Of a stretch of DNA of 64,000 bases, positions 18,801-32,141 are shown piece after piece (position 1 is the stretch's first letter; each line of letters opens with the position of its first letter). The stretch covers positions 866,634 through 930,633 of the forward strand of contig JAQTZF010000001.1 of the NCBI GenBank assembly GCA_028687915.1. The letters run 5' to 3'. A program made the translations under genes and the position numbers. Under the pieces are notes generated by a model, which was not told the DNA's origin, ran no database searches, and saw nothing but the letters and a program-made list of their open reading frames with translations. This stretch comes from Candidatus Daviesbacteria bacterium (lineage in GTDB: Bacteria > Patescibacteriota > Microgenomatia > Daviesbacterales > UBA10151).

Positions 18801-18850
18801 AAACTTAAAAAAAATTTTCTGATAACCAAGAATTTGTTTTTTATCTTCAT
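12893..18850 (-). CDS. Giant secreted modular protein (1985 aa): F5/8 type C (discoidin) domain, SGNH-like region, two-Cys modules x2, GH5-like (cellulase family A) domain, C-terminal PQQ-like beta-propeller
   Basis: ORF track. N-terminal discoidin-like segment (NAVDGNVSTFWTSG...). 'HSWELNNEGDP' and 'RGETGFV' resemble the GH5 acid/base NEP and nucleophile motifs (assignment by motif only). YAV/YAI propeller blades at the C-terminus. ATGA start/stop overlap with 5508..12896. Confidence 0.75.
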   Translation of the reverse strand: MKIKNKFLVIRKFFLSFSIILFTLVALFGIIKSTQNANAQIAGDLALNKPIISVSSTAAGSSPVNAVDGNVSTFWTSGSGGAQWLGIDLGSTVSIGTVTVKWGNNLATNYNIELSDDGVGFTVVRSGINGDFNSSILGSGRYLLIRANTGSSQSNYQLASLEVFAAPVTTPTATISPRATATPTSTPTPTATPTPTTVSSTKFIINHQNVTSFNNLPDTVITQASALRMMFRHASVGSNINDGLNALTAQNTKYNRTNWSFQARGNPGWQAKVDDFDVQVALQASTMDVLSQKFCYIDQGADWNYYRTHMEALMAAYPTKKFIWWTMPIMTSGDPSRDAFNNNLRTYAATHNIILFDLAAIESHDPAGNAITSGGLEAMYPAYSSDGGHLTAAGSQRVAQAFWVMMARISGWSESSLTPTVTTTPTATPTAAPTPVACQLTSASWSVPGSQSLIAPQNSTVSLVISGNSSCANKQVSLKVVRNGLSTTGGNDVAIHPVGITLSSSGTGTSSWVTEYNPLILFTSPQYYFTASAEGGNTIDTQANLLTVTGLAGGGPQIGNISDNISTYTNSQVPKYEKFESTFQINNTVATNLQMPYDETPPAGVTPKEGITVNGEFLAPGETDWAKASIQPAFYYQDFDYQVKGGRDWIYPTTNYSWKLRFSPTQEGTWQYRLTAQDAGGKVTSSTQTFIVSAADPNNHGFVKVSKTDTRYFEYQDGTYFPGLSLNTSIPSENPITSSKTNLPKFGQNGIQLLRVWLSGWSINSSAWNPWNSHTGGWYGGYIPFSSIDTRLPGAPGSDVSMELEQYWNPCIFTGWLKDSPALKPNTKYRVSIKYLMPQNLPAPKDPTKPYGLVAKTGFWLWGPTDNPPTYCFNPGTGNVVSNYASTSPKDGSGNPQWSILTGEFTSDANRDFMLNFYLTIENIDNLTPLTGSGAFVQIDRVDVNEVNPDGSLGPNVIEKSWMAHHQYMEQKMAYAFDKVLEEAEKDNVYFKLVIQEKNEIIANSINYDGKVIPNVQECWDSDPKNDPAECPFMGNKWYYGNWGQPTKVYWLQQAWWRYLQARWGYSPNVHSWELNNEGDPYNGLHYTLTNNLGKYMHQFGPNSHLVTTSNWHSFPTTGFWGNNNYSDVDYADVHQYILQGTNLDLRVDKPTNGAGTNIGTIADYYDSAEEANKISQQIGAKQPFGVNKPVMRGETGFVDSNWAATTLFNNDTQGIWLHKYIWGGINSGGLIESYWYGGEHIYPAGRDLRPQYGIYYNFIKDIPLSNGNYQDIGATSNNTNIRAWGQKDTVNGKAHVWIDNKTHTWGNVVNNPTAIAVQSGTVTIPGMPVGSYTVTWVDTYTGTTLKTDTSIVDQTGNINLTVLNLDKDIAVKVENTTLSLVCTLASAAWNTQTTTTGTIVNLNVTGDANCANKQVNFEVRRNGSTIDDIQANTQPAAIALNAQSQGSGSWVAEFNPLRLFGVPLGDPQYYFRATTTGGNTIESNPRLLTVTIGTGGTPTPTLTPTPGASSTDWPQVQKDANHSGYVAQTVLPPTSSSAVLWKRDKPFPVSSRVQPVIAQNLVFLPSNNGSLYALSTTDGHTVWSYKTGSGLVNSAAYDNGRVFFGSTDHNIYAVNANDGSLAWKVLTGSTVKTAPVIANGIVYIGSSDGNMYAINGSTGAQVWKHDIGAPIYDTAAIDNNRVFFGGMDSVGYALNISDGSEAWHIKIPGQGFRDRWTVAGNGKVLFTPMLYGEKGASLTEGTYLFNGTANPLIYNQPWSVQRSMILSYLQAHPYNQPVHVVNQNTGAELPAPILYGSGGSQAPHAQPVLLPNGNADVIYRRSFGELSTSGATTYSALYVGELTSADNDILPIDTCVPGGGTRADTCGNYKAPLISDESSALMRSGDIVYVSSGRGDIGLDTINKTNLPFSSYNTTSGGIFGNPPIVLYPGHTEWICINPSGGIDTPFSEVNSDCNDIKRPTPIVGDTFYILYYSTIMAVKGTIR

Positions 18851-18868
18851 ATACTCTTACCAACTTTT

Positions 18869-20095
18869 TTAATTATTACCTGGTGGTGCTTTTGGCATCA
18901 CTTTATATTTTTTTCTTAAAAGTAGAAACATTATTCCCATAACTACAACAGTAACTGCAACCACTCCAAGGAAAATTATCCATTGTGACAATCCAGTTTT
19001 TTCATACCAATTATTTACTGGATTTACCTTAAAACTAAATTCATTTCCTTCTTGTGAAGTAGCAGCACCCAAAACATTAATTTCAAATGTTTTTTCAGAA
19101 CCTGGTACTCTAATAACTACTAGATGTTTATCTGCAGAAACATTTGTAAAAACTACTTCTCCGTTTTCATTTGTTATTCCTCTTTGAGGATCACTGTAAA
19201 GCAAAACTTCAGCATTCTTCAGGAGTGTACCCTTTTCATCTGTAACCTTAACTTTGATTTGAAAACCAGGAATTTGGAATTCTTGGTCTACACTTTGTAC
19301 TTGTGAACCAAAACTATCTATAGATTTAACTCTATAGTGAATTTTATATCCGGGTAACATCATTGCACTTTGGAGCTTAACTTTGTGTTGCTTTAACAAA
19401 GTTTCTGAAGTTGATGATAAAAAGTAATTACCTTTTTCTAAGCCGTATTCCACAACTGAATTTGCCTCCCTGTCAGTCTTCCAGGTAATCGTTGCACTAC
19501 CAGAAGCAACATCTGCTGCTGCTATATCACTTATGAGTAACTGGTCCACACTATTATCAGGTGTAGCTACAGGCTGTCCTGGTTTAGTTGTGGTTTTAGT
19601 ACCAGCCTTAGGAGTTGGCGCAGCTGCTTGGCCACCAACAGTAATTGTTGCACCACCACTTCCACCAAGATTTAACGAATCAGAACTATCAGACGCTCGT
19701 GGGGCAGATGATCCACCAACAAATGATAATGTAGCAGCTCCTGCAGATTTCCCCTTAAAGCTTACTGTGGCAACATTAACACTTCCGGAAACCGCACTCA
19801 GACTTCCCCGGGAAACCTTAATCATTCCCCCACCATAAGAATTTTCTGCACCTATCCCAAAAGCTGAACCAGGATTTACAGATAATACATCAAGCTTATC
19901 CGCTGGGTATGCTAAAAAAGCAGAAACTGCGTTAACAGCATCACCTCCGGTGTTTAGTCTAATAGAAACTGAAATAGTGCCACCAATAGGAACAGTTGTT
20001 TTTCCGGGAGAAACAGATAGAGTGGAAGCAATTATTGCTTGAGGCATTAATAAAAATAATGCAGCCACAATAATAATTAATGAAAATATCCTCAT
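18869..20095 (-). CDS. Membrane-anchored cohesin-like / FN3-like / CarboxypepD_reg-like protein with C-terminal TM anchor
   Basis: ORF track. N-terminal domain paralogous to 258..872. Middle 'ATITWKTDREANSVVEYGL' is FN3/PAP-N-like. 'KVKVTDEKGTLLKNAEVLLYSD..NGEVVF' is a CarboxypepD_reg/Cna-B-like fold. C-terminal TM + RKKYK. Confidence 0.6.
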   Translation of the reverse strand: MRIFSLIIIVAALFLLMPQAIIASTLSVSPGKTTVPIGGTISVSIRLNTGGDAVNAVSAFLAYPADKLDVLSVNPGSAFGIGAENSYGGGMIKVSRGSLSAVSGSVNVATVSFKGKSAGAATLSFVGGSSAPRASDSSDSLNLGGSGGATITVGGQAAAPTPKAGTKTTTKPGQPVATPDNSVDQLLISDIAAADVASGSATITWKTDREANSVVEYGLEKGNYFLSSTSETLLKQHKVKLQSAMMLPGYKIHYRVKSIDSFGSQVQSVDQEFQIPGFQIKVKVTDEKGTLLKNAEVLLYSDPQRGITNENGEVVFTNVSADKHLVVIRVPGSEKTFEINVLGAATSQEGNEFSFKVNPVNNWYEKTGLSQWIIFLGVVAVTVVVMGIMFLLLRKKYKVMPKAPPGNN

Positions 20096-21795
20096 TGAGT
20101 ACCCCCACTTGTTGTACTTTCTATAGTTGCGCTAGAAGTACTGGTTTTTACAACGCTGGTGGGGCTAGGTGTTGCACTGGATGTTGCATTTGCACTACTT
20201 GTTGCAGTCAAGGTTGGAGCAACTGTAGCTGTGGTTGTGGGTGTAGGAGTTATATTGGCAACCAAATAAGCCTGACCTAAAGCATTTAATTTCATTGGCC
20301 AATAACATATCTTATTATTTGACTCAAACAAGCCTACCAACTGAGGATTTGCACCACATGTATCCGTCCAAAACCACTTTTCTACATTAAGTTTATTACT
20401 TGTAAGATATTTCATAGCTGCTTGGGCAAAATCAACGCCTTCATTAGGTGCATTTTTAGAAACACCTAGCCTGCTGATCCAAATTGGAACACCTTTCCAA
20501 CCGATGACAGCGTCCATGTAATTACGCACATTTGTTAAATAATTCTCTAGATCCTTTGATCCAGACCATTGTTTTTGATCAGTCGCCAAATATCTAACTG
20601 CTAAGATATCAATCGGCGGCTCAACCTCAAAAAAAGTTTTATAAGACGCTCTAAAAGTGTCTAACGTCCTTTTTGGACTATACCCGTTTTTAGCATCAAA
20701 AACAACAGGAGAACCCATTATTCCACCTGGCAAAACCTTAGCAGAGGGATCTATACTCTTAATCTTAATATAAAATTGATGATATAGTAAAGCATAAATG
20801 TCTAATGAAACAGGATTCATAAAAGGCTCAGAGTAAGTTTGTTCAAATCCCATTCCGTCATCCACCATCCAGACTGCTCCACAACGTGATAGAACTAAAT
20901 CTGATAATCCCTGGCCTTGCTCATCACCCAAGAGTACAACACTTGCACTTTCATACCAGACAACACTTCCCTTTCCAATATTAGTAAGCGCTAACTGAAA
21001 GCCTGATACTCCGGCAGGAACTTTACCATAACCCATGACGTAGCTCCATTTATTTGGTTTAACATTTGATAAATCTGCTGCACCAAATTCATTGAAAGGT
21101 GCTTGGCTATTTTGAATTACTACCTTTGCATCAGCAGAGGTAGGTGCTTTTATCCAAACTCCAAAAATAATAAATTGACCTTCTTTTACCGGTGCTTTAT
21201 AAGCTTGTGAAATCTGTGTACCTGACTGGTCTTTATTATTTGTTAGTTTTATACTTGTCCCCTTACTGGATGTACTTTTAGACACTTCTTCTACATCTAT
21301 AAAGACACTCCCTGCTGAATCTGCAATAGTCCAACCCACGGGAACCTGGCCAGGCAAACCTTTAAAGTCAGCGTTACTTAAGTTATTTTCCATCAACAGG
21401 CGAAGCCCCAAAGGATCTCCCAAATTTTGTGTGTATTTCCCAATAGTAAATACAGATTTTTTGGGACCTAAATTTAAATCATTAGTGGAATAAAGAGAAG
21501 TTCCTAAAGTTGCTATTGCCTGTTCCAAATCGCCACCTGTAAAAATAAAGCCTCCACGATTAGAAGGAACTTCAATATGATTTGTACACGCAGCAGCTTG
21601 AGTTTTTTGCTTTGGAAATAAGCGCTCTAGAATTGAATTTTTAAAGGAAAATAACAAAGCAACCAACAAGAACACTATTAACCCTACAGCAAATAATGAG
21701 ACAGCTAACTTAGCATTACTTTTCTCCTGATTAAATAAACGCGCAAAAGGATTTCCTGAAAAACTTAATTTGGGCATGTTAAAGTCCTCTTGCAT
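20092..21795 (-). CDS. Membrane-anchored secreted protein, possibly glycosyl-hydrolase-like, with Ser/Thr-rich C-terminal tail
   Basis: ORF track. N-terminal TM. AAGAGGA RBS 7 nt upstream of the ATG. First gene of the operon. Functional call is weak. Confidence 0.55.
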   Translation of the reverse strand: MQEDFNMPKLSFSGNPFARLFNQEKSNAKLAVSLFAVGLIVFLLVALLFSFKNSILERLFPKQKTQAAACTNHIEVPSNRGGFIFTGGDLEQAIATLGTSLYSTNDLNLGPKKSVFTIGKYTQNLGDPLGLRLLMENNLSNADFKGLPGQVPVGWTIADSAGSVFIDVEEVSKSTSSKGTSIKLTNNKDQSGTQISQAYKAPVKEGQFIIFGVWIKAPTSADAKVVIQNSQAPFNEFGAADLSNVKPNKWSYVMGYGKVPAGVSGFQLALTNIGKGSVVWYESASVVLLGDEQGQGLSDLVLSRCGAVWMVDDGMGFEQTYSEPFMNPVSLDIYALLYHQFYIKIKSIDPSAKVLPGGIMGSPVVFDAKNGYSPKRTLDTFRASYKTFFEVEPPIDILAVRYLATDQKQWSGSKDLENYLTNVRNYMDAVIGWKGVPIWISRLGVSKNAPNEGVDFAQAAMKYLTSNKLNVEKWFWTDTCGANPQLVGLFESNNKICYWPMKLNALGQAYLVANITPTPTTTATVAPTLTATSSANATSSATPSPTSVVKTSTSSATIESTTSGGTQ

Positions 21796-21861
21796 TTTTA
21801 TTTACCTTAGATTATCGAAACATATTATTGGGAATTGTGCAAGATATACTATAAGTACTGA

Positions 21862-24084
21862 CTATATAATGGCTTTTTGTAACTCTTTAGCTTCTCCCAC
21901 CGGCTTTTTAGTATAATGCTCAGCATTTGCCAAAACATCCGGGGTTAAGACTGGAAGAGAAAAAGTAAAAGTAGCTCCTTTTCCATTACCTTCAGAAGTA
22001 GCCCAAATTTTACCATGCATAAGGTCAATCAAACTTTTTGATATAAACAATCCAAGTCCAGTTCCACCTGATGTAGCTGCAGCTGCATAAGAACTATCAA
22101 GCCTACCAAACTTTTGGAATAATTTAGGCAAATCTTCTCTGGAAATTCCTACCCCACTATCATGAATAGATGTTTCTACAACTTTACCGTCTGTAAAGAA
22201 TTTTACTGAGACTGTGCCATCAACAGGAGTAAATTTTAAAGCATTTCCTAAAAGATTTAATATAACTTGAGTCACTTTATCCGGATCAGCAAAAACAGAT
22301 GGAATTTGTCCTTTAACTACATCAACTTTAATATTCTTTTCACCTGCTTTTGGTAAGACCATAGAAATAATTTCATCCGATAATGTTTGAATATCAAATT
22401 CTTTTGGTTTAATTTCAATACTTCCGGATTCAATACGGGATACATTCAGCATGTCATTAACCAAATTAATTAACCTTTCTGTAGAAATATATGCCCGTGA
22501 TAAATACTTCTCCATTTTAAAAGTAAGCTGGGTATCAGGCCTCTTTAAAGCCATCCAAAGATAGGATCTAATTGCAGTCATCGGGGTTCTTAGTTCATGG
22601 GAAGCAATACTTACAAAGTCATTCTTTAATCTATCTAATTCTTTTAACCTTGAATTAGCTTTTTGCAAATCAATTGTTGCCTTTTTTACTTCTTCCTCCA
22701 AAGTAATATTAAATCTCTTTATTTTATCGTAAGACTGTGCATTTTGAATGGCAACAGAAAGTTCCGGTGATAAAATATCAAACACTTTTAAGTCCTGATC
22801 ACTATACATTTCACCAGAGGCTTTTTCACCTAATATTAAAAACCCAATAATATCATCATTAATATGTAAAACCTTTGCCAAAGAAACTCCTATACTTCTC
22901 ATTGATTCTTTTAACTCCCCTTCTTCCAAATCATCAAAAATAACTATCTTATGCATATCCAGAGAAAAAGTAAAACGGCAATTTAAAGCATCTAACTTAT
23001 CTTCAAATCCTTCAGAAATTACCTGATAAAGATCTCCCTCAGACTTTAAAATTAAAGCCCCTTTGGTAATTCTCATCTCCTTTAAAATTGCCTGCAAAGT
23101 TTGATTAACCAAAGGTCTTATTTCAATATTGGTACTCATAATATGAGATAGGAGCGAGAGTAATGTGTTTGCATCATAAGTAACCTTATAAAAGAATCTA
23201 TCAGTAATCTTTTCGATAGATTTTAAAAGAGGTTGAAAAGACAGAGCAATAATTAGTGTTAAAACTGTAGAGCTTGCTAAGTTACTTGCATTACCTTGTT
23301 GCTTTAAAACTACAACTCCCATTATCAACATTCCGATTACATAGAAAAAAGCCAAAATTAAAACGAGGATTACATAACTAACTGCTCTTGCTACAACAAG
23401 ACGGATGTCCATCAAACGATGCTTTGTAATAGCATAAAAAATCGATCCTTCCAAAATAACAAAAGAAAACATTCCCAAAGAAACAAATTTAGTATTTTTT
23501 AAAATAATCACCATAAAAACATTAAAAATACTAATAAAGATAAGTGTCATTACAAATCCGAGTGTCAAATATTTAAAACCCTCTCTTTCCCTACCACTAG
23601 TTGAAAAAAGTCTTTTAATTAGGACAAATGCAATGATAAAAACATGAATAATTTGGCTAATCAAAAACAAAACAATCAATGGACCAGGATCAGTTAGGAC
23701 CTCTCCATTAACATACTTTACTCCCACGAAAAGAAGGTCAAAAATAGATGCATAAACTAAAATCCCAACAAGACAAAAGTCTGCGAATAATAATATTTTG
23801 TTAAAACTGAATTTATCTTTTGGGAAAATTATTACAAAAAAAGCCATCAATGGTGTTACCATCGATGCAAAAACCATGGTAAATTTAACCCATAAAAAAA
23901 TATTCGCAGGCGACGTTGTTAGTCTTGAACCTAAACTTCCTAAAGCCGAAGCAGCAGATGTTAAGGTAATAAGCAAAAAGAGACGATTCGTAAGGGACTT
24001 AGAATTATTGAAGTAAACTAACAATCCAAGTACTGCAAGTGAACTGGGTATCACAAAAAATAAGAGCAGATCTAAAGTGGGCAT
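21862..24084 (-). CDS. Sensor histidine kinase with multi-TM N-terminal sensor region, HisKA and HATPase_c domains
   Basis: H-box 'SHELRTPM'. N/G1/G2 boxes 'NLLGNALKFT', 'DSGVGI', 'GGTGLGL'. About 7 predicted TM helices at the N-terminus. Confidence 0.85.
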   Translation of the reverse strand: MPTLDLLLFFVIPSSLAVLGLLVYFNNSKSLTNRLFLLITLTSAASALGSLGSRLTTSPANIFLWVKFTMVFASMVTPLMAFFVIIFPKDKFSFNKILLFADFCLVGILVYASIFDLLFVGVKYVNGEVLTDPGPLIVLFLISQIIHVFIIAFVLIKRLFSTSGREREGFKYLTLGFVMTLIFISIFNVFMVIILKNTKFVSLGMFSFVILEGSIFYAITKHRLMDIRLVVARAVSYVILVLILAFFYVIGMLIMGVVVLKQQGNASNLASSTVLTLIIALSFQPLLKSIEKITDRFFYKVTYDANTLLSLLSHIMSTNIEIRPLVNQTLQAILKEMRITKGALILKSEGDLYQVISEGFEDKLDALNCRFTFSLDMHKIVIFDDLEEGELKESMRSIGVSLAKVLHINDDIIGFLILGEKASGEMYSDQDLKVFDILSPELSVAIQNAQSYDKIKRFNITLEEEVKKATIDLQKANSRLKELDRLKNDFVSIASHELRTPMTAIRSYLWMALKRPDTQLTFKMEKYLSRAYISTERLINLVNDMLNVSRIESGSIEIKPKEFDIQTLSDEIISMVLPKAGEKNIKVDVVKGQIPSVFADPDKVTQVILNLLGNALKFTPVDGTVSVKFFTDGKVVETSIHDSGVGISREDLPKLFQKFGRLDSSYAAAATSGGTGLGLFISKSLIDLMHGKIWATSEGNGKGATFTFSLPVLTPDVLANAEHYTKKPVGEAKELQKAII

Positions 24085-24131
24085 ACATTTATTATAAACA
24101 TAAAGACTACTTGAATTATAGTTGTCTTCTA

Positions 24132-25625
24132 CTATACCCTACTTTTCCCAGAAACGGCCACAAATTTCCCTGGATCATATTTTTTAAATACAAGTCGAGG
24201 TTCTGATTTTATCCCGACGCTACTTAAAACGTTTGCATATTCAGAATTAATGCTTCGTAAATTATCCACGATAATTGCTTTGATCTCCCTTTTATGATTA
24301 TCTGTTATCCTAATACCCTCTCTTAGCTCTAATGCAATACTAAGATAAACATCTGCATCATTTGTTTCTAATTTTTCTGCTATAAATCTACCAGTTAAAT
24401 ATTTTTCTAATTCAGGACGCTCCATTACAAAAGTTAATTGTTCGGGATAAATGTTTGCACCAAATAAGATAATTGTTTTATCAATCCTACCATTTACTGC
24501 TAAAACTGGTAAATTAGGTATACTAAAGTGTTTATCCACTAATAAGTATTTATCCTTTGTACCTTCTGGCAAGACGGATAATAGTTGCTCTGGTGTAAAA
24601 ATTTGTCCATGATCTTTAGTATCATATCGAATGATTGGGATATTACCCATAGCAGTTATAATTATGTTATTATTAACCACTTCAATGTACCTTGATGGAG
24701 GAATATATTGTAATAACGAAGGTAGATCTATCCGACCGAATGTTTTTTGTGCCAAAACTTGATCTTCATGAAAAAGTATCCTTAGATAATCAATAAAAGG
24801 AGTTGAAATTGCTGCTACTCCAACTTCCGACATACCTAAAACAGCCGCGACAGACCGATGAGGTTCAGCTAACCCAAGGTGCTTAATCATAAATTGACGC
24901 CAATTTTCACTATACTTTTCTCCCCCGGAAAGTATTTTTATTTTATATGATTTGAATTTTATACCCCTTCTTACTCCTTCTTGAACTAAATCTCTTAAGG
25001 ATGATGAATAACCTCCAATTATTATTTGATCGAATTGATCCGCCAATCCTTGGAAAATATTAAAAAATAATTCAGAATTTGTTCCAGGTGATATTATAGA
25101 AATCTTCAAACCTTTTTCAGACATCATTTTTGTTGCTGAATGAACCATTTCACCTGCAGTCCAAGGTCCCATACCATAACAATTAATAAATAAAGTACTT
25201 ATTTCTCCTAAATCAAAATATATCTTATATAACAACTCCATCCCTTTATAACTAGCTAAATCTTGTATCTTTGTTTTAGGCCAAAATGATGATTTTCCTG
25301 TGGAGCCAGAACTATAATGAATAACCGTTGAGTTACCCAAATCACCTCCGACAACTAAGTCGCCTAAAGAATACTTTTTAAAATAATTTTCTTTATTTGT
25401 TGTGGGGATTTTCTTAAAGTCCTCAATTGTATTTATTGTTTCTGGCTTAATGAAATTTTTTTTCAGAAAATCTTTGTATGCTGGAACTGTTTTTGCAGCG
25501 GTTTGAAAATTCTCTAATGCTTTTTGTTCACCAATTTTTTGCCAAACTTCAGTTGGAGTTTTGACAAAACCTTCTAGATCAGAGCTACTTTCATATTTAA
25601 AATACTCAGAAAAGATATCATCCAT
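24132..25625 (-). CDS. Acyl-adenylate-forming ligase, phenylacetate-CoA ligase / coenzyme F390 synthetase-like family
   Basis: ANL-superfamily A3-like motif 'SSGSTGK' and 'GMSE' (YGxTE-like) motif. Length 497 aa. Confidence 0.6.
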   Translation of the reverse strand: MDDIFSEYFKYESSSDLEGFVKTPTEVWQKIGEQKALENFQTAAKTVPAYKDFLKKNFIKPETINTIEDFKKIPTTNKENYFKKYSLGDLVVGGDLGNSTVIHYSSGSTGKSSFWPKTKIQDLASYKGMELLYKIYFDLGEISTLFINCYGMGPWTAGEMVHSATKMMSEKGLKISIISPGTNSELFFNIFQGLADQFDQIIIGGYSSSLRDLVQEGVRRGIKFKSYKIKILSGGEKYSENWRQFMIKHLGLAEPHRSVAAVLGMSEVGVAAISTPFIDYLRILFHEDQVLAQKTFGRIDLPSLLQYIPPSRYIEVVNNNIIITAMGNIPIIRYDTKDHGQIFTPEQLLSVLPEGTKDKYLLVDKHFSIPNLPVLAVNGRIDKTIILFGANIYPEQLTFVMERPELEKYLTGRFIAEKLETNDADVYLSIALELREGIRITDNHKREIKAIIVDNLRSINSEYANVLSSVGIKSEPRLVFKKYDPGKFVAVSGKSRV

Positions 25626-25628
25626 AAT

Positions 25629-26807
25629 TTACTTTAACAGATGAGTATCTAAATTTAATATAGCAGAGCCTAAATTAATTTTTTCTCCTATTGCTATCTT
25701 TTTAATAATATAAGATATTACTGTTCCTGATAAAAAAGCAGTGCTTCCTAATTGTGGAGGTCCTGCTAATTCTCTTCCTATTAAAGGTACTGATTCCCGT
25801 AATCTTTTAGGAGCTAAACTTCCTCCATTCATTTTCATAAATATCCGAGCCATATCATTAAATCCAAATTCTGGCGATCTTAATCTATCGAAATCTTCTT
25901 CATCTAACTTTCCGTTAAAGAAAGCCTGTTTATCATCAAGATCATACCTTTCGACATCTAAACCTATAGCATCAGCCATATCAGCAGCCATAACAACAGG
26001 GATTTTTCTTCTTTTAGCTTCCTCGCGGATCTTAACTTTCATGGGGAAGTTATCGATTTCATCGACTACCGCATCAAGGTCAGAGAAGAAGCTATCCATG
26101 TTAGTTTCTGTAAGCCCATCAACAAATAGCTTTAAATTAGCATACGGATTAACTTCATATATCATCTGGGCCAAATATATTGCTTTATTAATACCCACTG
26201 CATCAAAAGACGCTCTTATTCTATTGGTATTAGTGGCGGATATGACATCAAAATCTGCAAGATGCATAACCTCACATCCTCCGTTTACAGCAATTGTATA
26301 TGCAGCACTTTGACCAATACTAAGTCCTGCAATTCCAACTTTAAATTGTCTAAATTTTTCTTGTTCTTCATGAGTTACCAAACCCTTATTCCTTGCAGTT
26401 CTCAGTTCTTCATGAAGATTTTTAGATAAAAAATGAACTAGCTTATATTTCCAAGGAAAGTAAACCCAGGTCCCAGTTTGAACCAGCGGCTTATCATTAA
26501 ATAAACTTTTCACAAAATCGTTATATGCAGGAATTTCCTTTACCGACTTATATTGAAATTTATGAGAAGCATTTCTACAAAAATATAATTCTTCCAGCAT
26601 ATCTTCATATTCATCTATTACTTCTGTAATATTTAGCTGGAATGCTTGTTTGGTTAGTTGTTGTATTTCCTCTTCTTTTTCCATATCAAAAATCCGAGGA
26701 AGAGGGAGATCTCTTAAAAGCTCTTTTCGTTTGGAACTTTTATTTTTTAAAAATTCGTCTAGTGGTAGATTTTTCATTATTATTACTGTTTTAGACTCAT
26801 CAATCAT
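25629..26807 (-). CDS. ThiF/MoeB/E1-like adenylyltransferase-fold protein with ~150-aa N-terminal extension
   Basis: Nucleotide-binding 'VGIAGLSIGQ' (GxGxxG-like) and 'DFDVISATNTNR' matching the ThiF D-x-D-x-V-E-x-S-N-L-N-R-Q signature. No C-terminal CxxC pair seen. Confidence 0.6.
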   Translation of the reverse strand: MIDESKTVIIMKNLPLDEFLKNKSSKRKELLRDLPLPRIFDMEKEEEIQQLTKQAFQLNITEVIDEYEDMLEELYFCRNASHKFQYKSVKEIPAYNDFVKSLFNDKPLVQTGTWVYFPWKYKLVHFLSKNLHEELRTARNKGLVTHEEQEKFRQFKVGIAGLSIGQSAAYTIAVNGGCEVMHLADFDVISATNTNRIRASFDAVGINKAIYLAQMIYEVNPYANLKLFVDGLTETNMDSFFSDLDAVVDEIDNFPMKVKIREEAKRRKIPVVMAADMADAIGLDVERYDLDDKQAFFNGKLDEEDFDRLRSPEFGFNDMARIFMKMNGGSLAPKRLRESVPLIGRELAGPPQLGSTAFLSGTVISYIIKKIAIGEKINLGSAILNLDTHLLK

Positions 26808-26889
26808 CTTAGCAATACAATTAATTAGTGTAAATAGATACTTTTCGGAGGGTATAGCTATCAGAGAACTGATTAGTTAAAATTAATGG

Positions 26890-27339
26890 ATGAATAATGA
26901 CAAAACAAGAACTGATGGTTTTGAGTGTATTAACTGTCATAAGATGGTTAGAGACAAAGCACCCGGAACAGTAAATAGAAACCATTGTCCTTTTTGCTTA
27001 ACATCAAAGCATGTTGATCTTAATATTGCCGGAGATAGAAAAGCTACCTGTAAACAGGTGATGCAGCCAATTGGACTCACCTTTAAAGAAGCAGGACTAG
27101 ATAAATGGGGTAAACAAAAACAAGGAGAACTGATGGTAGCACACCAATGCCTGGGCTGCACAAAGATTTCCATAAATAGAGTTGCAGGAGATGATGATCC
27201 TAAAAAGATATTGGAAATTTTAGAAAGTTCAAAAGATTTAGATGAAGACTTAAAAAAGCTATTAATGCACTCTGGTATTAAATTACTTACCGATGCAGAT
27301 CTACCTGAAATTAAAACTCAATTATTCGGTAAAGAATAG
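26890..27339 (+). CDS. RNHCP-domain zinc-ribbon protein
   Basis: Literal 'RNHCPFC' motif plus CINCH...C and CLGC pairs. Start reading MNNDKT. Confidence 0.6.
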   Translation: MNNDKTRTDGFECINCHKMVRDKAPGTVNRNHCPFCLTSKHVDLNIAGDRKATCKQVMQPIGLTFKEAGLDKWGKQKQGELMVAHQCLGCTKISINRVAGDDDPKKILEILESSKDLDEDLKKLLMHSGIKLLTDADLPEIKTQLFGKE

Positions 27340-27352
27340 TATATAATAAATA

Positions 27353-27958
27353 ATGAAGCAATTTGGAAAATTGATTATTATTACCGGAGCCACAGTTTCC
27401 GGCAAAGATACAGTAGTTGCTGCTCTTCTAAAAGCCCACCCTTCCTGGAAAAAAGTTGTTACTACCACTACCAGACCTATCAGACCTGGGGAAATAGATG
27501 GTGAAGATTATTATTTTATAAGTGTAGAGGCTTTTCAGGAAATAAAAGAAAAAAATGAATTTCTTGAAACAGTAGAATATGCAGGTAATAACTACGGTAC
27601 AACCAAATCAACCCTTGATCCTGTTTTTCAAGGTCATAATCTAATTTGGAGAATTGATGCCTCCCGCTCTTCTGAAATAAATAAATTATTTGATCATTGT
27701 TTTGATAAAGAAACAGCTCAAAATATTAAAGCTAATACTAAGGTGATTTATCTTAAATTACCAGATGATGCTACCAGACAAAAACATTTCTTAAAAAGAG
27801 GTATGGAAAAATCTGATATAGCAAAAAGAATTAAACAAGACGAAATAGATTGGGACTTAGGAAAGTTTGAAAATATAGTTATAAATTATGATGGACAATT
27901 AAATAAAACAATCGAAGAAGTGGAAAGAATAATTAATTATTCGTGTTCAACAATATAG
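27353..27958 (+). CDS. gmk: Guanylate kinase-like protein (atypical P-loop)
   Basis: 'TTTTRPIRPGEIDGEDYYFIS...YGT' matches the Gmk signature T-T-R-x-x-R-x-G-E-x-D-G-x-D-Y-x-F. The P-loop reads GATVSGKD (Asp instead of Ser/Thr after Lys). Confidence 0.6.
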   Translation: MKQFGKLIIITGATVSGKDTVVAALLKAHPSWKKVVTTTTRPIRPGEIDGEDYYFISVEAFQEIKEKNEFLETVEYAGNNYGTTKSTLDPVFQGHNLIWRIDASRSSEINKLFDHCFDKETAQNIKANTKVIYLKLPDDATRQKHFLKRGMEKSDIAKRIKQDEIDWDLGKFENIVINYDGQLNKTIEEVERIINYSCSTI

Positions 27959-28314
27959 TTTTTAATTTCCATCAGGAATTGATCCGGAGTAAGTTCTGGT
28001 TTATGTAAAAAGCCGGCAGCTCCCAAGGAAATAGCTTCATTAATAACCTGCATTTGATCCAAGGCAGAAAGCATTACAATAGGACCATTTTTTGGAGGAG
28101 GGTTTAATGCTTTAAGCCTTCGTAATACCTCTAAACCATCAATCTTTGGCATCATAATATCAAGGACAACTAAATCATATCCTCCGGCAGTTATTTTTGC
28201 TAAAGCTGATTCACCATCAACAGCAGTTTCTACCTGATAACCTGCACCAATAAGAAGCTCCTCATAAAGGTTGCGTAGTTCTGCATCATCATCAACTAAT
28301 AATACTCTCGTCAT
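27937..28314 (-). CDS. Standalone CheY-like response regulator receiver
   Basis: MTRVLLVDDD...DLVVLDIMMPKIDG...LSA...K; 125 aa with no output domain. TGA stop. Confidence 0.85.
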   Translation of the reverse strand: MTRVLLVDDDAELRNLYEELLIGAGYQVETAVDGESALAKITAGGYDLVVLDIMMPKIDGLEVLRRLKALNPPPKNGPIVMLSALDQMQVINEAISLGAAGFLHKPELTPDQFLMEIKNYIVEHE

Positions 28315-28321
28315 TTGTATA

Positions 28322-28687
28322 TTATGATACTTTTTTCTTTTTTGAGCAAGTCAGACAAAGTGTTGCTGTTGGTAAAGCCTCTAGCCTGTTTATTTCTATT
28401 TCCTGACCACATTTTTCACACTTTCCATAAGTACCCTTTTTCATATTAGTTAAAGCATTTGAAATACGGGCGGAAAAATTTAATAAATCTCCTTTTAGAG
28501 AACTTAATCTTGCATGAACTTCTGCCATCCAGGAATCTGTACCAGATTCAGATGCTTCAGGTGCTAAATCTTTATTCATAAGTGGATCATCTTGATCTAT
28601 TTCAGCTATCTGTTTTTCCACAGATGCCTTCTTCTTTTGTAAGACTTTTTTAATTTTAATGATAGTTTCTTGGGGTAGATTTGACAT
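28322..28687 (-). CDS. DksA/TraR-family C4 zinc-finger protein
   Basis: C-terminal CxxC-x17-CxxC (CEKCGQEI...CLTCSKKKK) plus a coiled-coil N-terminus. Confidence 0.65.
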   Translation of the reverse strand: MSNLPQETIIKIKKVLQKKKASVEKQIAEIDQDDPLMNKDLAPEASESGTDSWMAEVHARLSSLKGDLLNFSARISNALTNMKKGTYGKCEKCGQEIEINRLEALPTATLCLTCSKKKKVS

Positions 28688-29573
28688 TTAATTTCCTCTT
28701 AATTTTATTTGGAAGCAGCAGTAAGCTGGTTCTTGTTTTACCCAACTTAATCTTCCATTGTATTTTTGAATTATAACAATGTTTTATAAATCTTTGTAGT
28801 AGCAAATTACGCTTTTTACTGGTACTAAATGAATCTATTATAGAAAATATATCATCTGTTGGCGCTCTTTTTGCCCTTAAATAAAAGATAACAAATCCTA
28901 TTATAAAAAGAGCCAAAGGAGCTAACTGTCCCTGCCAATCCCCTTCTCGAAAATAATCAGCAAAAAACCTTTCAGCACCTAAAAGCATAAAGGCAATAGC
29001 CATAATTTTACCATTAAAGTGAAACCTTGTAGCTGACTTCCATAACCAGAAAAAGAACATTAAATAGATTAGAGCTTCAAAAAAAGGAACAGGCAGTCTT
29101 TTGCCAATTAACCCTACTACTGAAACTGCAATTGGCAAAGAAGAAGTAACTCCGTAGCCGCAACCTCCTAAAGTACAGCCAATACTGCCAAAAACCAATC
29201 CCATCATTAAGCCAACTGTAGCAAGATCAGCAATTTGCCAAAAATTTAGCTTTGCTCTTGCAGCTAGTAATTTAAGAGTTAATGCTCCCCCTATCAAGCC
29301 ACCCCATAAAGATAAGCCTGGATAAAGATTAATTAAAAAAACATAAGAAATATTATTAAAATAATTTAAGTTAAATAATACAAAATATATTCTGGCAAAA
29401 ATTAAGCCGCCAAAAAAAGTTAACAAACCTAAATCTAAGATCTTAGCTTGATCTATATCATATGCCTTAGCAATTCTCCAGGAAACAAACATGGCTGCTA
29501 AAAAGCCTAAACCTAAAAATAATCCAAATGAGGATACAGGTACAGGACCAATACTGAACAATATAGGTAACAT
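28656..29573 (-). CDS. lgt: Prolipoprotein diacylglyceryl transferase-like membrane protein (start trimmed to the internal Met)
   Basis: Polytopic membrane protein with an Lgt-like N-terminus 'MLPILFSIGPVPVSSFGLFLGLGFLAAMFVSWRIA'. The track ORF extends to 29789, but the upstream part looks non-coding. ATG at 29571..29573. Confidence 0.5.
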   Translation of the reverse strand: MLPILFSIGPVPVSSFGLFLGLGFLAAMFVSWRIAKAYDIDQAKILDLGLLTFFGGLIFARIYFVLFNLNYFNNISYVFLINLYPGLSLWGGLIGGALTLKLLAARAKLNFWQIADLATVGLMMGLVFGSIGCTLGGCGYGVTSSLPIAVSVVGLIGKRLPVPFFEALIYLMFFFWLWKSATRFHFNGKIMAIAFMLLGAERFFADYFREGDWQGQLAPLALFIIGFVIFYLRAKRAPTDDIFSIIDSFSTSKKRNLLLQRFIKHCYNSKIQWKIKLGKTRTSLLLLPNKIKRKLNVKSTPRNYH

Positions 29574-29637
29574 TATTAGAATGATACCAAATTTTGACTT
29601 ATTCTTCTCCCCCTTGTTATACTGATTAATAGATTTT

Positions 29638-30078
29638 ATGACTGCAACCGCACACGCATTAATTGGAGGAGCTGTTGCCTCAACAATTTCAAATCCTGAA
29701 CTTGGTTTAAGCCTTGCTTTTATTTCACACCCATTATTAGATTTAATTCCCCATTGGGATTTTGCTAATAACTGGAGAGCAAAAGACAAATTTATCTTAT
29801 TTATAGAAGCCTCAGCTGATCTAACTTTTGGTGTGTTGTTATCATATATATTATTTGGCCAAAACGTGAACCTATGGTATTTTTTTGGTTGTATTTTTGT
29901 AAGTGAAGTTTGGGATATTATAGAGGCACCTTATTGGTTTCTTAACTGGAAATTCCCCCCAATATCATGGATTTATAATGTTCAATCAAAGATGCAAGGA
30001 AAGGCTGCACTACCCTGGGGAATTATCACTCAAATACTTACAGTTGCATTAGCCACACTAATTTTACAGAAAATATAA
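29638..30078 (+). CDS. Hypothetical small membrane protein
   Basis: ORF track; hydrophobic segments; no overlap with the trimmed lgt. Uncertain. Confidence 0.35.
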   Translation: MTATAHALIGGAVASTISNPELGLSLAFISHPLLDLIPHWDFANNWRAKDKFILFIEASADLTFGVLLSYILFGQNVNLWYFFGCIFVSEVWDIIEAPYWFLNWKFPPISWIYNVQSKMQGKAALPWGIITQILTVALATLILQKI

Positions 30079-30639
30079 TTACTTTACTCTCTCGATATAC
30101 TGACCGTTTCTGGTATCAACCTTTACCCTATCTCCAACTTTCATAAACATAGGTACTTTTACCTGTAAACCATTATCCAATGTGGCATCTTTATATACAT
30201 TTGAAACTGTATTTCCTTTTTCACCGGGGCCTGTATCTGTAATTTCATAAATTAAAGTATTGGGAATCTCTAATCCTAAAGCAGTTTCATCAGCCACAAT
30301 CAAAATAACATCCATACCATCTTTTAAGAATTTTGCCTGTTCTGATACTGTTTCTTTTGGTACTGAAAATTGTTCAAAACTTTCAGGATCCATAAAGTTA
30401 TAGATTTCTCCATCAGAATATAAAAACTGAGCTTTTTTCTTTTCTACTCCAGCTTCTTCTACTCTTGCTCCGGTAATAAATGATTTTTCAGAAGATGCCC
30501 CGGTTTTTAAATTGCGGATTTTAACTTTAATGTTTCCAGACCCTCTACCCATTTTAATGTGCTCATAATTAACCACCTGCCAAAGCTGGTTATCTTCTTT
30601 ATATACAACACCATTTCTTAAATCGTTAACGTTTATCAT
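30079..30639 (-). CDS. efp: Elongation factor P
   Basis: 'MINVNDLRNGVVYKEDNQLWQVV..KMGRGSGNIKVKIRNLKTG' is the canonical EF-P N-terminal KOW domain. 186 aa. Confidence 0.9.
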   Translation of the reverse strand: MINVNDLRNGVVYKEDNQLWQVVNYEHIKMGRGSGNIKVKIRNLKTGASSEKSFITGARVEEAGVEKKKAQFLYSDGEIYNFMDPESFEQFSVPKETVSEQAKFLKDGMDVILIVADETALGLEIPNTLIYEITDTGPGEKGNTVSNVYKDATLDNGLQVKVPMFMKVGDRVKVDTRNGQYIERVK

Positions 30640-32141
30640 TGTAAGATTAATTCTACCAAAGTTTTTATTCCTACTCCAGTGGCTCCAGGAGCACTATATG
30701 GAGTTGGCTTTAAATCCCAGGCTGTTCCAGCAATATCAAGGTGAATCCAGGGAGTAGTTTCTTCCACCACTGTTTCAATAAATTTAGCAGCAGTAATAGA
30801 TCCTGCAGTAGATGGGCTGGATCCTCCATGACCAATATTGGTAATATCAGCAATATCAGATTTGATCATATCTTTATATTCTTCCCCTAAAGGCATCTGC
30901 CAAAACTTTTCACCAACTGTTTCTCCTAATTTTACTAATTTTTCTGAAAATTCTTTATTATTAGTAAAAACACCAGTGATTTTATCACCCAATGCCACAA
31001 CCATTGCTCCTGTCAAAGTTGCTAAATCAATTAATTTTGTAGCATTTAAATCCTTTTGAGCATAGGTCAAAGCATCCATTAAAACCAATCTTCCTTCTGC
31101 ATCAGTGTTTATTGTTTCAACTGTTTTTCCAGAATAGCTTTTAATAATATCTCCTGGTTTTAAGGCTTTTCCTGAAGGTAAATTCTCTGTTAATGCTAAA
31201 ACTGCAGATACATTAACCCTTGGCTTAAGCTCACCAATAATCTGCATCAGCCCTAAAACATTAGCTGCACCACACATATCATATTTCATTTCATGCATAC
31301 CTGAACTTGGTTTTATAGAAATTCCACCACTGTCAAAAGTTAAACCCTTGCCTATTAAACCATATTTATCTTTGCTTCTTGCGTTTCCTGTATACTCTAA
31401 AGCAACCACAAAAGATGGTTCATCTGAACCTTTGGCAACTGCAGCAAATGCACCCATTCCCTTCTTTTGAGCCATTTTTTCATCAATCACTGTTATTTTT
31501 AATTTAAAATCATGGGCAATCTTTTTAGCAGTTTCCACAAAGTAAGCAGGAGTTGCCTCATTTGGGGGTAAGTCACCATGTAATCTGGCCATGTTAATAC
31601 CAAGGGATACAACAGATGCTTTTTTGATAGCAATCTTATCCTCTCCTCTGGCTTTTTCTAAGAAAATTTGTAAACCGCCTAATTTTGTAGGTTCTTTTCC
31701 TGTTTTAAATCTGGTAGATGGATCATGAAATGCTATCTCTGCCCCTAAAACTAATGCATAAACTACAACATCTGAAGCTAATTTGTCTGATTCAGGTGGA
31801 ATTAATGTTGCATCTTTAAATCTATCAATTAAATATTTAGAAACAGTTCCACCAAAATTTTGACAAGTTTCAAAATCAAATTTATCCTTCTCTCCTACTC
31901 CAACCAATAAAAAGCTTTGTTCAGCATTAAAAAGAAGCTGAATTTCATTGGGGGCTCCAAATTTAGGGTTATCTTTTAAGAAATCTTTAATTAACTGATT
32001 TTCAAATTTTGGGGATTCATTTATAAAAACTGGAATGGCTATTATCTTTGCTTCCTTTAAAGACTCTTGGTCTGTGGATAATTGAATTCTCATGAAGCTA
32101 ATATTACGCTTATACGTGCGTGATGTCAATTGTAGGCACAA
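30636..32141 (-). CDS. pepA: Leucyl aminopeptidase (M17 family)
   Basis: M17 signature 'NTDAEGRLVLMDALTYA'. 501 aa. TGA stop. Confidence 0.9.
   Translation of the reverse strand: MCLQLTSRTYKRNISFMRIQLSTDQESLKEAKIIAIPVFINESPKFENQLIKDFLKDNPKFGAPNEIQLLFNAEQSFLLVGVGEKDKFDFETCQNFGGTVSKYLIDRFKDATLIPPESDKLASDVVVYALVLGAEIAFHDPSTRFKTGKEPTKLGGLQIFLEKARGEDKIAIKKASVVSLGINMARLHGDLPPNEATPAYFVETAKKIAHDFKLKITVIDEKMAQKKGMGAFAAVAKGSDEPSFVVALEYTGNARSKDKYGLIGKGLTFDSGGISIKPSSGMHEMKYDMCGAANVLGLMQIIGELKPRVNVSAVLALTENLPSGKALKPGDIIKSYSGKTVETINTDAEGRLVLMDALTYAQKDLNATKLIDLATLTGAMVVALGDKITGVFTNNKEFSEKLVKLGETVGEKFWQMPLGEEYKDMIKSDIADITNIGHGGSSPSTAGSITAAKFIETVVEETTPWIHLDIAGTAWDLKPTPYSAPGATGVGIKTLVELILQ

Follow-up and report, generated by a model that had tools for sequence, protein, structure and literature searches.

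Organisation of the locus

This study concerns a pair of adjacent genes for adenylate-forming enzymes in a 64-kb stretch of Candidatus Daviesbacteria DNA (contig JAQTZF010000001.1, positions 866,634 to 930,633), the whole of which is referred to here as the window. The first is a ThiF/E1-like gene on the minus strand (25629..26807; 392 aa as the longest open reading frame, ORF), a homologue of the ATP-dependent cyclases of the TrzS/OxzB/TyzB type. The second, on the same strand (24132..25625; 497 aa), encodes a PaaK-like ligase of the ANL superfamily, recognised by its motifs and fold and without a Pfam match. A seven-transmembrane (7TM) sensor histidine kinase gene follows (21862..24084, minus strand; 740 aa; Pfam HisKA_7TM, HisKA and HATPase_c), and the order in the window is therefore E1-like gene, ligase, kinase, with all three ORFs co-directional. 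It is suggested here, with a probability only slightly better than even (about 0.55), that this operon could be a ligase-primed, kinase-linked variant of the oxazolone biosynthesis carried out by OxzAB, TyzACB and TrzAS.

Both genes of the pair are intact, and their adjacency and their position between the kinase and an RNHCP zinc-ribbon gene are as described in an initial annotation made from the sequence by itself. The gap between them, given there as 4 nt, measures 3 nt from the stop codon of the E1-like gene to the ATG of the ligase (TAA-ATT-ATG), a spacing which suggests translational coupling. A further 47 nt, without a terminator-like site, separate the ligase stop from the kinase start. 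Promoter and terminator scans gave no more matches than shuffled sequence; one promoter-like match (TTTACA-17-TAAGAT with TG, 26834-26806) is of a kind at least as frequent when the sequence is shuffled. The first ten codons of the longest E1-like ORF (26777-26807) are probably untranslated, with the true start at Met11 (position 26777) and a product of 382 aa, since the NCBI protein has this length and homologues align from Met11. For both the E1-like protein and the ligase there are 100%-identical database entries, from the same 1.09-Mb Daviesbacteria contig.

The E1-like protein

The Pfam ThiF domain covers only aa 143-275 of the E1-like protein (E 3.9e-21), and the N-terminal extension that had been reported is thus real. 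It is also conserved, being included in the best NCBIfam match, NF005901 'Rv1355c family' (265.6 bits, E 8e-79; next best family 84 bits), which aligns aa 37-390 with profile positions 13-339 of 722. The score falls below the full-length cutoff of 476 because only one half of this fused profile is present. When compared with a 730-aa Rhodococcus 'Rv1355c family protein' the window protein was 33% identical over 283 aa (E 1e-52), and the two have in common a WxYxPW hairpin, RxxRN, GLSxG, LADFD..N.NR, the Asp of the DN motif, VERxDL and PQLG. By profile and pairwise comparison, then, the E1-like protein is related to Rv1355c/TrzS, namely to its cyclase half, and its own ThiF-like domain is homologous to TrzS, OxzB or TyzB, as in an oxazolone cyclase. 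A characterised relative of the family, available since 2021-2025, escaped the initial annotation.

The adenylation site is intact. In an alignment of 20 sequences R136/R139/N140, G161-L-S-x-G165, D185/D187, N193/R196, K208 and D252 are invariant, and all of the ThiF/MoeB ATP-site residues are kept, including the Arg finger (R136/R139). Judged by motif, D252, which belongs to the DN motif, would be the counterpart of TrzS D217 and ThiF D127; the TrzS D217A variant is cyclase-dead (PMC12856293). No catalytic-Cys domain had been seen in the protein, and this was borne out, as no Cys is invariant in the 20 sequences and the protein ends right after the adenylation domain. An AlphaFold2 model (pLDDT 91) has AclA (9egb), ThiF, PaaA, MoeB, MccB and TcdA as its top Foldseek matches. 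The nearest solved structure is that of AclA from Tenacibaculum discolor with substrate (PDB 9egb/9egc/9egd), released in August 2025; a literature search for the function of AclA (PDB 9egb) returned nothing. This structure could be directly relevant to the substrate of the E1-like clade.

The PaaK-like ligase

Although the ligase gave zero Pfam matches, the motifs on which its initial identification was based, SSGSTGK (105-111) and GMSE (264-267), are present, together with further ANL motifs, RY..D.G and GR among them. The defining features of the ANL superfamily are all there: P-loop, aromatic/TE motif, ribose-binding Asp, hinge, C-terminal catalytic Lys and a two-domain fold. Invariant positions are S105-S-G-S-x-G110, E236/E240/W242/R243, G264, Y334/D338/G340, G379-R380 and the C-terminal Lys494. 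In its AlphaFold2 model (pLDDT 85.5) it most resembles PaaK1/2 (Foldseek E 7e-21), and further structural matches are BT_0428, ClxA and HCL (2-hydroxyisobutyryl-CoA ligase). It is not an orthodox PaaK, scoring 65.7 bits with the TIGR02155 equivalog model against a cutoff of 646.3; its best PDB sequence match is 4r1l (41.7 bits), and there is weak similarity to FlxY. From these features the ligase is assigned to an ANL subfamily without a Pfam model.

Homologues of the ligase are common in cyanobacteria and occur in actinobacteria, as stand-alone genes which also lack a Pfam domain. Those of Stanieria, an actinobacterial metagenome-assembled genome (MAG) and Trichormus (L004, L089 and L090, respectively) have a length of about 500 aa and share 33-36% identity with the ligase of the window. 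Because these genes stand alone, their context outside the Patescibacteria is uninformative.

Conservation of the operon in Patescibacteria

A pattern scan, with one genome per species, identified 381 loci that encode a relative, of which 80 were kept for comparison. All 80 carry Candidate Phyla Radiation (CPR)/Patescibacteria titles or belong to unclassified or oddly binned MAGs. The features of each locus were mapped by tblastn, the window was compared with 79 related loci, and the totals of 77, 68 and 61 used below are of evaluable loci. The neighbourhood check proposed in the initial annotation gave a clear result: the ligase adjoins the E1-like gene on the same strand in 72/77 loci. These come from different species, and the pairing is beyond chance. 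In 64 loci the ligase lies immediately upstream of the E1-like gene, while the downstream position seen in the window was found in 4.

A third gene, of about 340 aa and with a nitroreductase fold, is present in 64 of the 79 loci, and with the first query set it was found no more than 4 kb downstream of the E1-like gene in 51/68. The usual order is ligase, E1-like gene, nitroreductase-fold gene (an Acg-type flavin oxidase) and 7TM kinase, with gaps of 10-40 nt in typical loci. The nitroreductase-fold protein of the relatives matches NF005901 at positions 374-713 (158.6 bits) and also matches the Acg family; its identity with the C-terminal half of the Rhodococcus Rv1355c-family protein is 22% (E 5e-16). 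Since the two genes match the two halves of NF005901, the Patescibacteria pair represents a split TrzS, comparable to TyzB and TyzC.

Directly upstream of the ligase, and on the same strand, one of three deaminating enzymes is encoded in 28/61 loci (L009, L023, L010 and about 25 more), and never two of them together. A Glu/Leu/Phe/Val-type dehydrogenase occupies this position in 12 loci, its best NCBIfam match being the tryptophan dehydrogenase ScyB (305.7 bits). An aromatic amino-acid ammonia-lyase is found in 8, matching the flexirubin tyrosine ammonia-lyase FlxA best (583 bits, against 454 for HutH), and a HisC-like class I/II aminotransferase in another 8. All three strip the amino group and leave a carboxylic acid, which makes them suited to supplying the substrate of an ANL ligase. 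Their preference for aromatic amino acids is read from the names of the best families, none of which reaches its curated cutoff, and should be regarded as putative. The window itself has no ScyB-like, FlxA-like or HisC-like gene.

In about 14 loci methyltransferase-like ORFs are inserted ahead of the kinase, after the gene for the oxidase or the ligase (for example L025:12161-13174, L065:4218-5147 and L029:13671-14423). That of L029 is a clear S-adenosylmethionine methyltransferase; a family of about 300 aa gave only sub-threshold Pfam methyltransferase matches. These genes would fit the role of tailoring enzymes, as expected of such a pathway. When all non-nested ORFs of at least 30 aa around the E1-like gene were clustered, no acyltransferase family recurred in the 80 loci, and neither did a small conserved ORF, a YcaO, protease, exporter, E2 or JAB gene. 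A tblastn search with two possible acyltransferases of actinobacterial loci, which are not verified TrzA homologues, also found no match.

In one Wolfebacteria contig (L002:7945-10148) the operon is followed by an ORF of 51 aa and by genes for a C39-type peptidase and an ABC transporter, an arrangement that is typical where bacteriocins are exported. The corresponding place in the sister contigs L001 and L003 is taken by genes for a peptidase M15 and a D-Ala-D-Ala ligase.

The window was also compared with its closest relatives. The arrangement in L094 (79% identity) is exactly that of the window, down to the upstream genes for the receiver, guanylate kinase and RNHCP protein. In L093 (71%), L087 and L088 the order is DksA-type zinc finger, E1-like gene, ligase, kinase and receiver, and no oxidase was found within 8-10 kb of the E1-like gene in these three. 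L086 does have the oxidase, placed divergently upstream. From this comparison it is concluded that the oxidase-less form is stable in the subclade, and that the RNHCP and guanylate kinase genes of the window are a local insertion.

The sensor kinase and response regulator

The most conserved partner of the enzyme genes is the downstream 7TM kinase, to which the initial annotation gave no weight. A kinase of the same family lies no more than 6 kb downstream, on the same strand, in 49 of 62 loci. The window kinase consists of an N-terminal 7TM domain, a middle region with a faint GAF-like match (E about 0.05; the GAF domain is clear in relatives), HisKA and HATPase_c. The kinases form one family, and across 52 of them the sensor domain has conserved residues at F36, N50, R67, F87-P88, P116, F119, F140, G176, N188 and Y217. 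Neither a Cys nor a Lys is conserved in the sensor domain across these 52 kinases, which makes covalent attachment of a ligand unlikely; a ligand could be sensed non-covalently in the 7TM domain. A covalently bound chromophore, as in photoactive yellow protein or rhodopsin, was considered for the kinase and dropped for the same reason.

A receiver-only response regulator (27937..28314, minus strand; 125 aa; Pfam Response_reg) is encoded upstream of the E1-like gene in the window, and in exactly this position in L094. In L087, L088 and L093 a receiver of 125-128 aa directly follows the kinase, and receiver-only regulators flank the kinase in about 16 other loci. From this the receiver of the window is concluded to be the orthologue of the kinase-adjacent receiver and, tentatively, the probable partner of the kinase.

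Neighbouring genes

The RNHCP zinc-ribbon gene (26890..27339, plus strand) and the guanylate kinase gene that follows it, identified by Pfam, together occupy 26890-27958 on the plus strand and separate the response regulator gene from the E1-like gene. L094 has the same insertion, which is absent from L093, L087 and L088. Both genes were considered as members of the system and rejected as neighbours that are not conserved; with RNHCP present within 10 kb in only 1/79 other loci, plus the closest relative L094, this gene lies outside the system.

Genes for elongation factor P, prolipoprotein diacylglyceryl transferase and a DksA/TraR-type zinc finger (28322-30639, minus strand) precede the E1 operon. 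Their synteny is kept within the subclade, in the window, L093, L094 and partly L087, and in L087 and L093 the zinc-finger gene immediately adjoins the E1-like gene. Downstream of the kinase (12893-21795, minus strand) the window encodes three large secreted or anchored proteins. The first, of 1985 aa, has F5/8 type C and PQQ-like beta-propeller domains; the second, of 408 aa, has a signal peptide, a carboxypeptidase-regulatory-like domain and a C-terminal transmembrane anchor; and the third, of 567 aa, has a Thr/Ser-rich tail and no Pfam match. None of the three is kept beside the operon in the other loci.

A proposed ligase-primed oxazolone pathway

Homology, intact active-site motifs, gene order and its conservation are observations; the identity of substrates and product, a function of the ligase as acyl donor and the connection with the kinase are inferred. 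According to published analyses, the pairing of ThiF with an FDO-A-type oxidase predicts oxazolone formation, and all natural oxazolones so far known come from aromatic amino acids. The E1-like and nitroreductase-fold genes of the Patescibacteria thus suggest oxazolone chemistry, and the deaminases suggest that a small molecule is made. Of the two possibilities raised by the initial annotation, conjugation or small-molecule adenylation, it is the second that is supported, with the E1-like protein grouping with OxzB, TyzB and TrzS, and with deaminase and methyltransferase genes beside the pair in relatives. Conjugation is not supported, there being no ubiquitin-like carrier, catalytic Cys or E2.

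In the proposed pathway the PaaK-like ligase would adenylate a carboxylic acid, which in many relatives could be supplied by the adjoining aromatic-amino-acid dehydrogenase, ammonia-lyase or aminotransferase. An amino acid might then be N-acylated by the ligase, in a direct reaction of the amide-bond synthetase kind that some ANL enzymes perform or by way of a coenzyme A (CoA) thioester, and this step would replace the acyl-CoA-dependent N-acyltransferase of the known systems. That a PaaK-like enzyme adenylating an aromatic acid for a non-catabolic use, ClxA, is among its top structural matches is of note here. The E1-like protein would adenylate the carboxylate of the resulting N-acyl amino acid, so that the amide oxygen closes a 5(4H)-oxazolone ring, a reaction demonstrated for TrzS, TyzB and OxzB, and in most relatives the adjoining Acg-type flavin oxidase would desaturate the C-alpha/C-beta bond, introducing an exocyclic double bond. 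In the known systems the product is an N-acyl 4-arylidene-5(4H)-oxazolone. The window lineage appears to have lost the oxidase, and its product would then be the saturated oxazolone or a derivative. A saturated oxazolone did build up in TrzS assays under limited O2, and acid and alcohols break the oxazolone ring (PMC12856293). The co-transcribed 7TM kinase and the receiver-only regulator would have a functional connection with the pathway, the simplest being that its product or a precursor is sensed.

Several points weigh against this proposal. The window is without two of the three defining components, the flavin oxidase and the N-acyltransferase, and we infer that the ligase stands in place of the latter. 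No flavin oxidase was found in the 64-kb window by tblastn with five diverse oxidase queries, and when the oxidase of the closest relative was used as the query no protein from the window's 1.09-Mb contig was among 48 database homologues, a search which readily gave relatives at 56-100% identity. Identity to members of the characterised family is only about 33%, and those members are fused actinobacterial proteins. Both the ligase chemistry and the cyclisation are predictions for this operon; its ligase might instead provide a CoA thioester to an enzyme encoded at another locus, or have an unrelated substrate. The 2-oxo acids that a dehydrogenase or aminotransferase would release and the acrylic acids expected from a lyase are chemically different ligase substrates. 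The desaturation by the flavin oxidase of TrzS requires O2, and many Patescibacteria live without oxygen. Finally, the adjacency of the kinase is evidence of linkage and not of the identity of its ligand, and its sensor has no conserved Cys or Lys.

Alternative explanations

Of the rival readings the strongest is that the operon encodes a related small-molecule pathway leading to another product, and it is possible, if clearly less probable than the oxazolone pathway. The operon would be kinase-linked as before, but the E1-like protein would activate some other carboxylate, towards a lactam, lactone, thioacid or amide, and the ligase and flavoenzyme would carry out steps without a counterpart in OxzAB, TyzACB and TrzAS. 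It is known that ThiF-like enzymes turn a common acyl-adenylate into many different products (PMC12596934). The missing acyltransferase and, in the window, the missing oxidase are also in keeping with such a pathway, as is the fact that the E1-like protein shares only 33% identity with TrzS-family proteins and has AclA (9egb) as its nearest structure. What favours the oxazolone pathway is that the E1-like protein matches the Rv1355c profile along its whole length, N-terminal part included, that 64/79 loci carry a gene matching the other half of that profile, and that this ThiF and FDO-A-type oxidase pairing is the one from which oxazolones are predicted.

An improbable alternative is a system for ribosomally synthesised and post-translationally modified peptides (RiPPs) of the MccB, PaaA or thiazole/oxazole-microcin type, in which the E1-like protein would bind a precursor peptide and adenylate it, and the nitroreductase-fold enzyme would oxidise it. 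The combination of an E1-like protein and a nitroreductase-fold dehydrogenase does recall the microcin B17-type synthetases, Foldseek aligns about 350 columns of the E1-like model with MccB and also finds PaaA, and the Wolfebacteria locus L002 has a short ORF, C39 peptidase and ABC transporter downstream. The MccB superpositions are poor, however, with a root-mean-square deviation of about 12 A and template modelling (TM) scores of 0.42-0.46. No conserved precursor-sized ORF of at least 30 aa is present in the 79 loci, where the tight packing of the core genes leaves no room for one; a very short peptide may escape such a search. Nor does a YcaO, protease or exporter recur, the L002 genes being absent from the sister contigs L001 and L003, and the amino-acid deaminases of the operon point to free acids as substrates.

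It is very unlikely that the E1-like protein modifies tRNA or another nucleic acid in the manner of the ct6A dehydratase TcdA, with the ligase and kinase as unconnected neighbours. TcdA is its best PDB sequence match (68.6 bits), and a housekeeping role would account for wide conservation in reduced genomes. But the match extends only over the Rossmann core (aa 130-258, against a TcdA of about 270 aa), the NCBIfam TcdA model scores 44 bits with a cutoff of 304, and the N-terminal hairpin and C-terminal PQLG motif are held in common with Rv1355c-family proteins instead. Strict co-linearity with ligase, oxidase and kinase across deep Patescibacteria lineages is also difficult to reconcile with neighbours brought together by chance.

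The same low probability is given to the possibility that the ligase is an ordinary catabolic aryl-acid CoA ligase, similar to phenylacetate-CoA ligase and serving amino-acid fermentation, and that the E1-like gene is unrelated to it. PaaK is its nearest family and fold, and the upstream amino-acid dehydrogenases and aminotransferases would fit. Against this, it reaches a tenth of the cutoff of the PaaK equivalog, genes for fermentation or of the paa type do not accompany it, it is tied to the E1-like gene in nearly all loci with a spacing suggestive of translational coupling, and the stand-alone cyanobacterial and actinobacterial homologues have no catabolic context.

The weakest alternative, a ubiquitin-like conjugation or sulphur-carrier system of the ThiF/MoeB type with its carrier encoded elsewhere in the genome, has in its favour a ThiF fold with an intact adenylation site and the fact that the window is only 64 kb of the genome, but it is most improbable, failing on every defining feature open to analysis: there is no small ORF ending in G or GG within about 5 kb, no beta-grasp gene that recurs in the 79 loci, no invariant Cys, CxxC zinc site or rhodanese domain (ThiF being the only Pfam domain), and no E2, JAB, ThiG or MoaE among the listed neighbour genes. 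The initial annotation had seen no ubiquitin-like small ORF nearby, and the check it recommended agreed: among the ORFs of 25-130 aa in 19000-32000, and among those of at least 20 aa in 23900-27400, none ends in G or GG. Its suggestions of conjugation, or of a surface protein or nucleotide as the target, are not supported, the window having no beta-grasp partner, conserved Cys, E2 or JAB, and none of these recurs in the 79 loci.

Implications

Oxazolone natural products were linked to ThiF-nitroreductase enzymes in 2021, and Rv1355c was added in late 2025; their physiological role has been stated as unresolved, with signalling as one speculation. The genomic link to a membrane sensor kinase and a regulator would make that idea directly testable. 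Patescibacteria are ultra-small, mostly episymbiotic and have very little biosynthetic capacity. It is conceivable, although we think it rather unlikely, that they nevertheless keep a self-contained signalling circuit, in which an oxazolone is made from amino-acid parts, the 7TM kinase is its receptor and the receiver-only regulator passes on the signal. In such a circuit the oxidase-less lineages would make a reactive saturated azlactone. If this were true, the kinase would be the first receptor assigned to a natural oxazolone, and the Patescibacteria would have a quorum- or host-sensing system.

A ligase, frequently with a dedicated aromatic-amino-acid deaminase, would be a different way to an N-acyl amino acid, beyond those of the known systems. 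Patescibacteria are reported to be without fatty-acid synthesis and acyl-CoA metabolism, and an ATP-dependent ligase would suit such hosts. Natural versions without the oxidase, as in the window, raise the question of what the cyclase does alone. More generally, the proposal gives a functional hypothesis for a gene set of at least 381 species-level genomes, from a radiation whose conserved genes mostly lack an assigned role, and it flags an ANL ligase subfamily that has no Pfam model.

Comparison with known systems

The nearest characterised system is TrzS/TrzA (Rv1355c/Rv1356c) of Mycobacterium tuberculosis, which makes N-acyl tryptazolones. TrzS, identified with Rv1355c in December 2025, cyclises and then desaturates the N-acyl-tryptophan made by TrzA; its R540A variant is without desaturase activity, and Acg is the closest structure to its oxidase (PMC12856293). 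The E1-like protein matches the ThiF-like cyclase half over its whole length and keeps the ATP-site motifs, the relatives encode the flavin-oxidase half as the next gene, and both systems adjoin signalling genes. TrzS is fused, whereas the Patescibacteria proteins are split and the window is without the oxidase. The TrzA N-acyltransferase of M. tuberculosis has no equivalent in the Patescibacteria operon, which has instead the PaaK-like ligase and a co-linear 7TM kinase, and the host of TrzS is a mycolic-acid actinobacterium.

In the second M. tuberculosis system, TyzA/TyzB/TyzC (Rv2336/Rv2338c/Rv2337c), the TyzA acyltransferase, ATP-dependent cyclisation by TyzB and O2-dependent desaturation by TyzC lead to N-acyl tyrazolones (PMC10404671). 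Cyclase and flavin oxidase are separate adjoining genes here, as in the Patescibacteria relatives, and the two-step logic of cyclisation followed by desaturation is the same. TyzB, at 318 aa, lacks the long N-terminal region of the window protein; TyzA uses acyl-CoA and resembles the acyl-homoserine-lactone synthases, and the Tyz system has neither ligase nor kinase. OxzB of Pseudoalteromonas rubra, from the first oxazolone synthetase system, is a ThiF-nitroreductase fusion which turns N-acyl-tyrosine made by OxzA into oxazolones (PMC12596934; bioRxiv 10.1101/2020.06.11.147165), and according to a 2025 review no other ThiF-like enzyme is known to have a small-molecule substrate (PMC12596934). 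It resembles the operon described here in its ThiF and nitroreductase domains and small-molecule substrate, and its authors also suspected a role in signalling. It differs in being fused, in having an acyltransferase partner and fatty acyl chains, and in having no linked receptor gene. The publications on OxzAB, TyzACB and TrzAS do not mention a ligase, a histidine kinase or the Patescibacteria.

Other members of the family have regulatory genes nearby. The ThiF-oxidase genes of M. tuberculosis adjoin genes for cyclic di-GMP enzymes, and this is echoed on the Rhodococcus qingshengii plasmid pLP1 (L091:2826-7028), where a fused Rv1355c-family gene lies beside a GGDEF-domain gene; a divergent hypothetical protein of 252 aa encoded there, without a Pfam match, may be a TrzA-like acyltransferase. 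In Streptomyces scabies the ThiF-nitroreductase protein ORF1, encoded beside the PAS-LuxR gene cfaR, raises CfaR activity about ten-fold, for which protein modification was proposed in 2015 (PMC4380410). ORF1, which boosts the production of coronafacoyl-isoleucine, itself an N-acyl amino acid, probably belongs to the oxazolone-synthetase type of enzyme.

Comparisons for the ligase come from other pathways. With PaaK and ClxA (PDB 2y27, 2y4o, 9s45) it has in common the two-domain ANL fold and all core motifs, but it is about 70 aa longer, 15-19% identical and found in a biosynthetic rather than a catabolic context. The logic of FlxA/FlxY in flexirubin biosynthesis is similar, in that an aromatic amino acid is deaminated by a lyase and the resulting acid activated by a ligase, and a FlxA-like lyase is directly upstream of the ligase in 8 relatives. 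This lyase is absent from the window, and the E1-like cyclase and flavin oxidase have no counterpart in pathways of the FlxA/FlxY type. The TAL/pCL enzymes of photoactive yellow protein are another pair of lyase and acid ligase.

For the link with the kinase, CqsA/CqsS and LuxM/LuxN offer a parallel, as pairs of an autoinducer synthase and a membrane histidine-kinase receptor. The operon would work like them, in the sense that its synthase genes are physically linked to a multi-pass membrane sensor kinase; CqsA and LuxM are not homologous to its enzymes, and binding of the product by its kinase is hypothetical. Set beside these systems, the Patescibacteria operon is a real finding and not an ordinary one, yet it is not categorically new.

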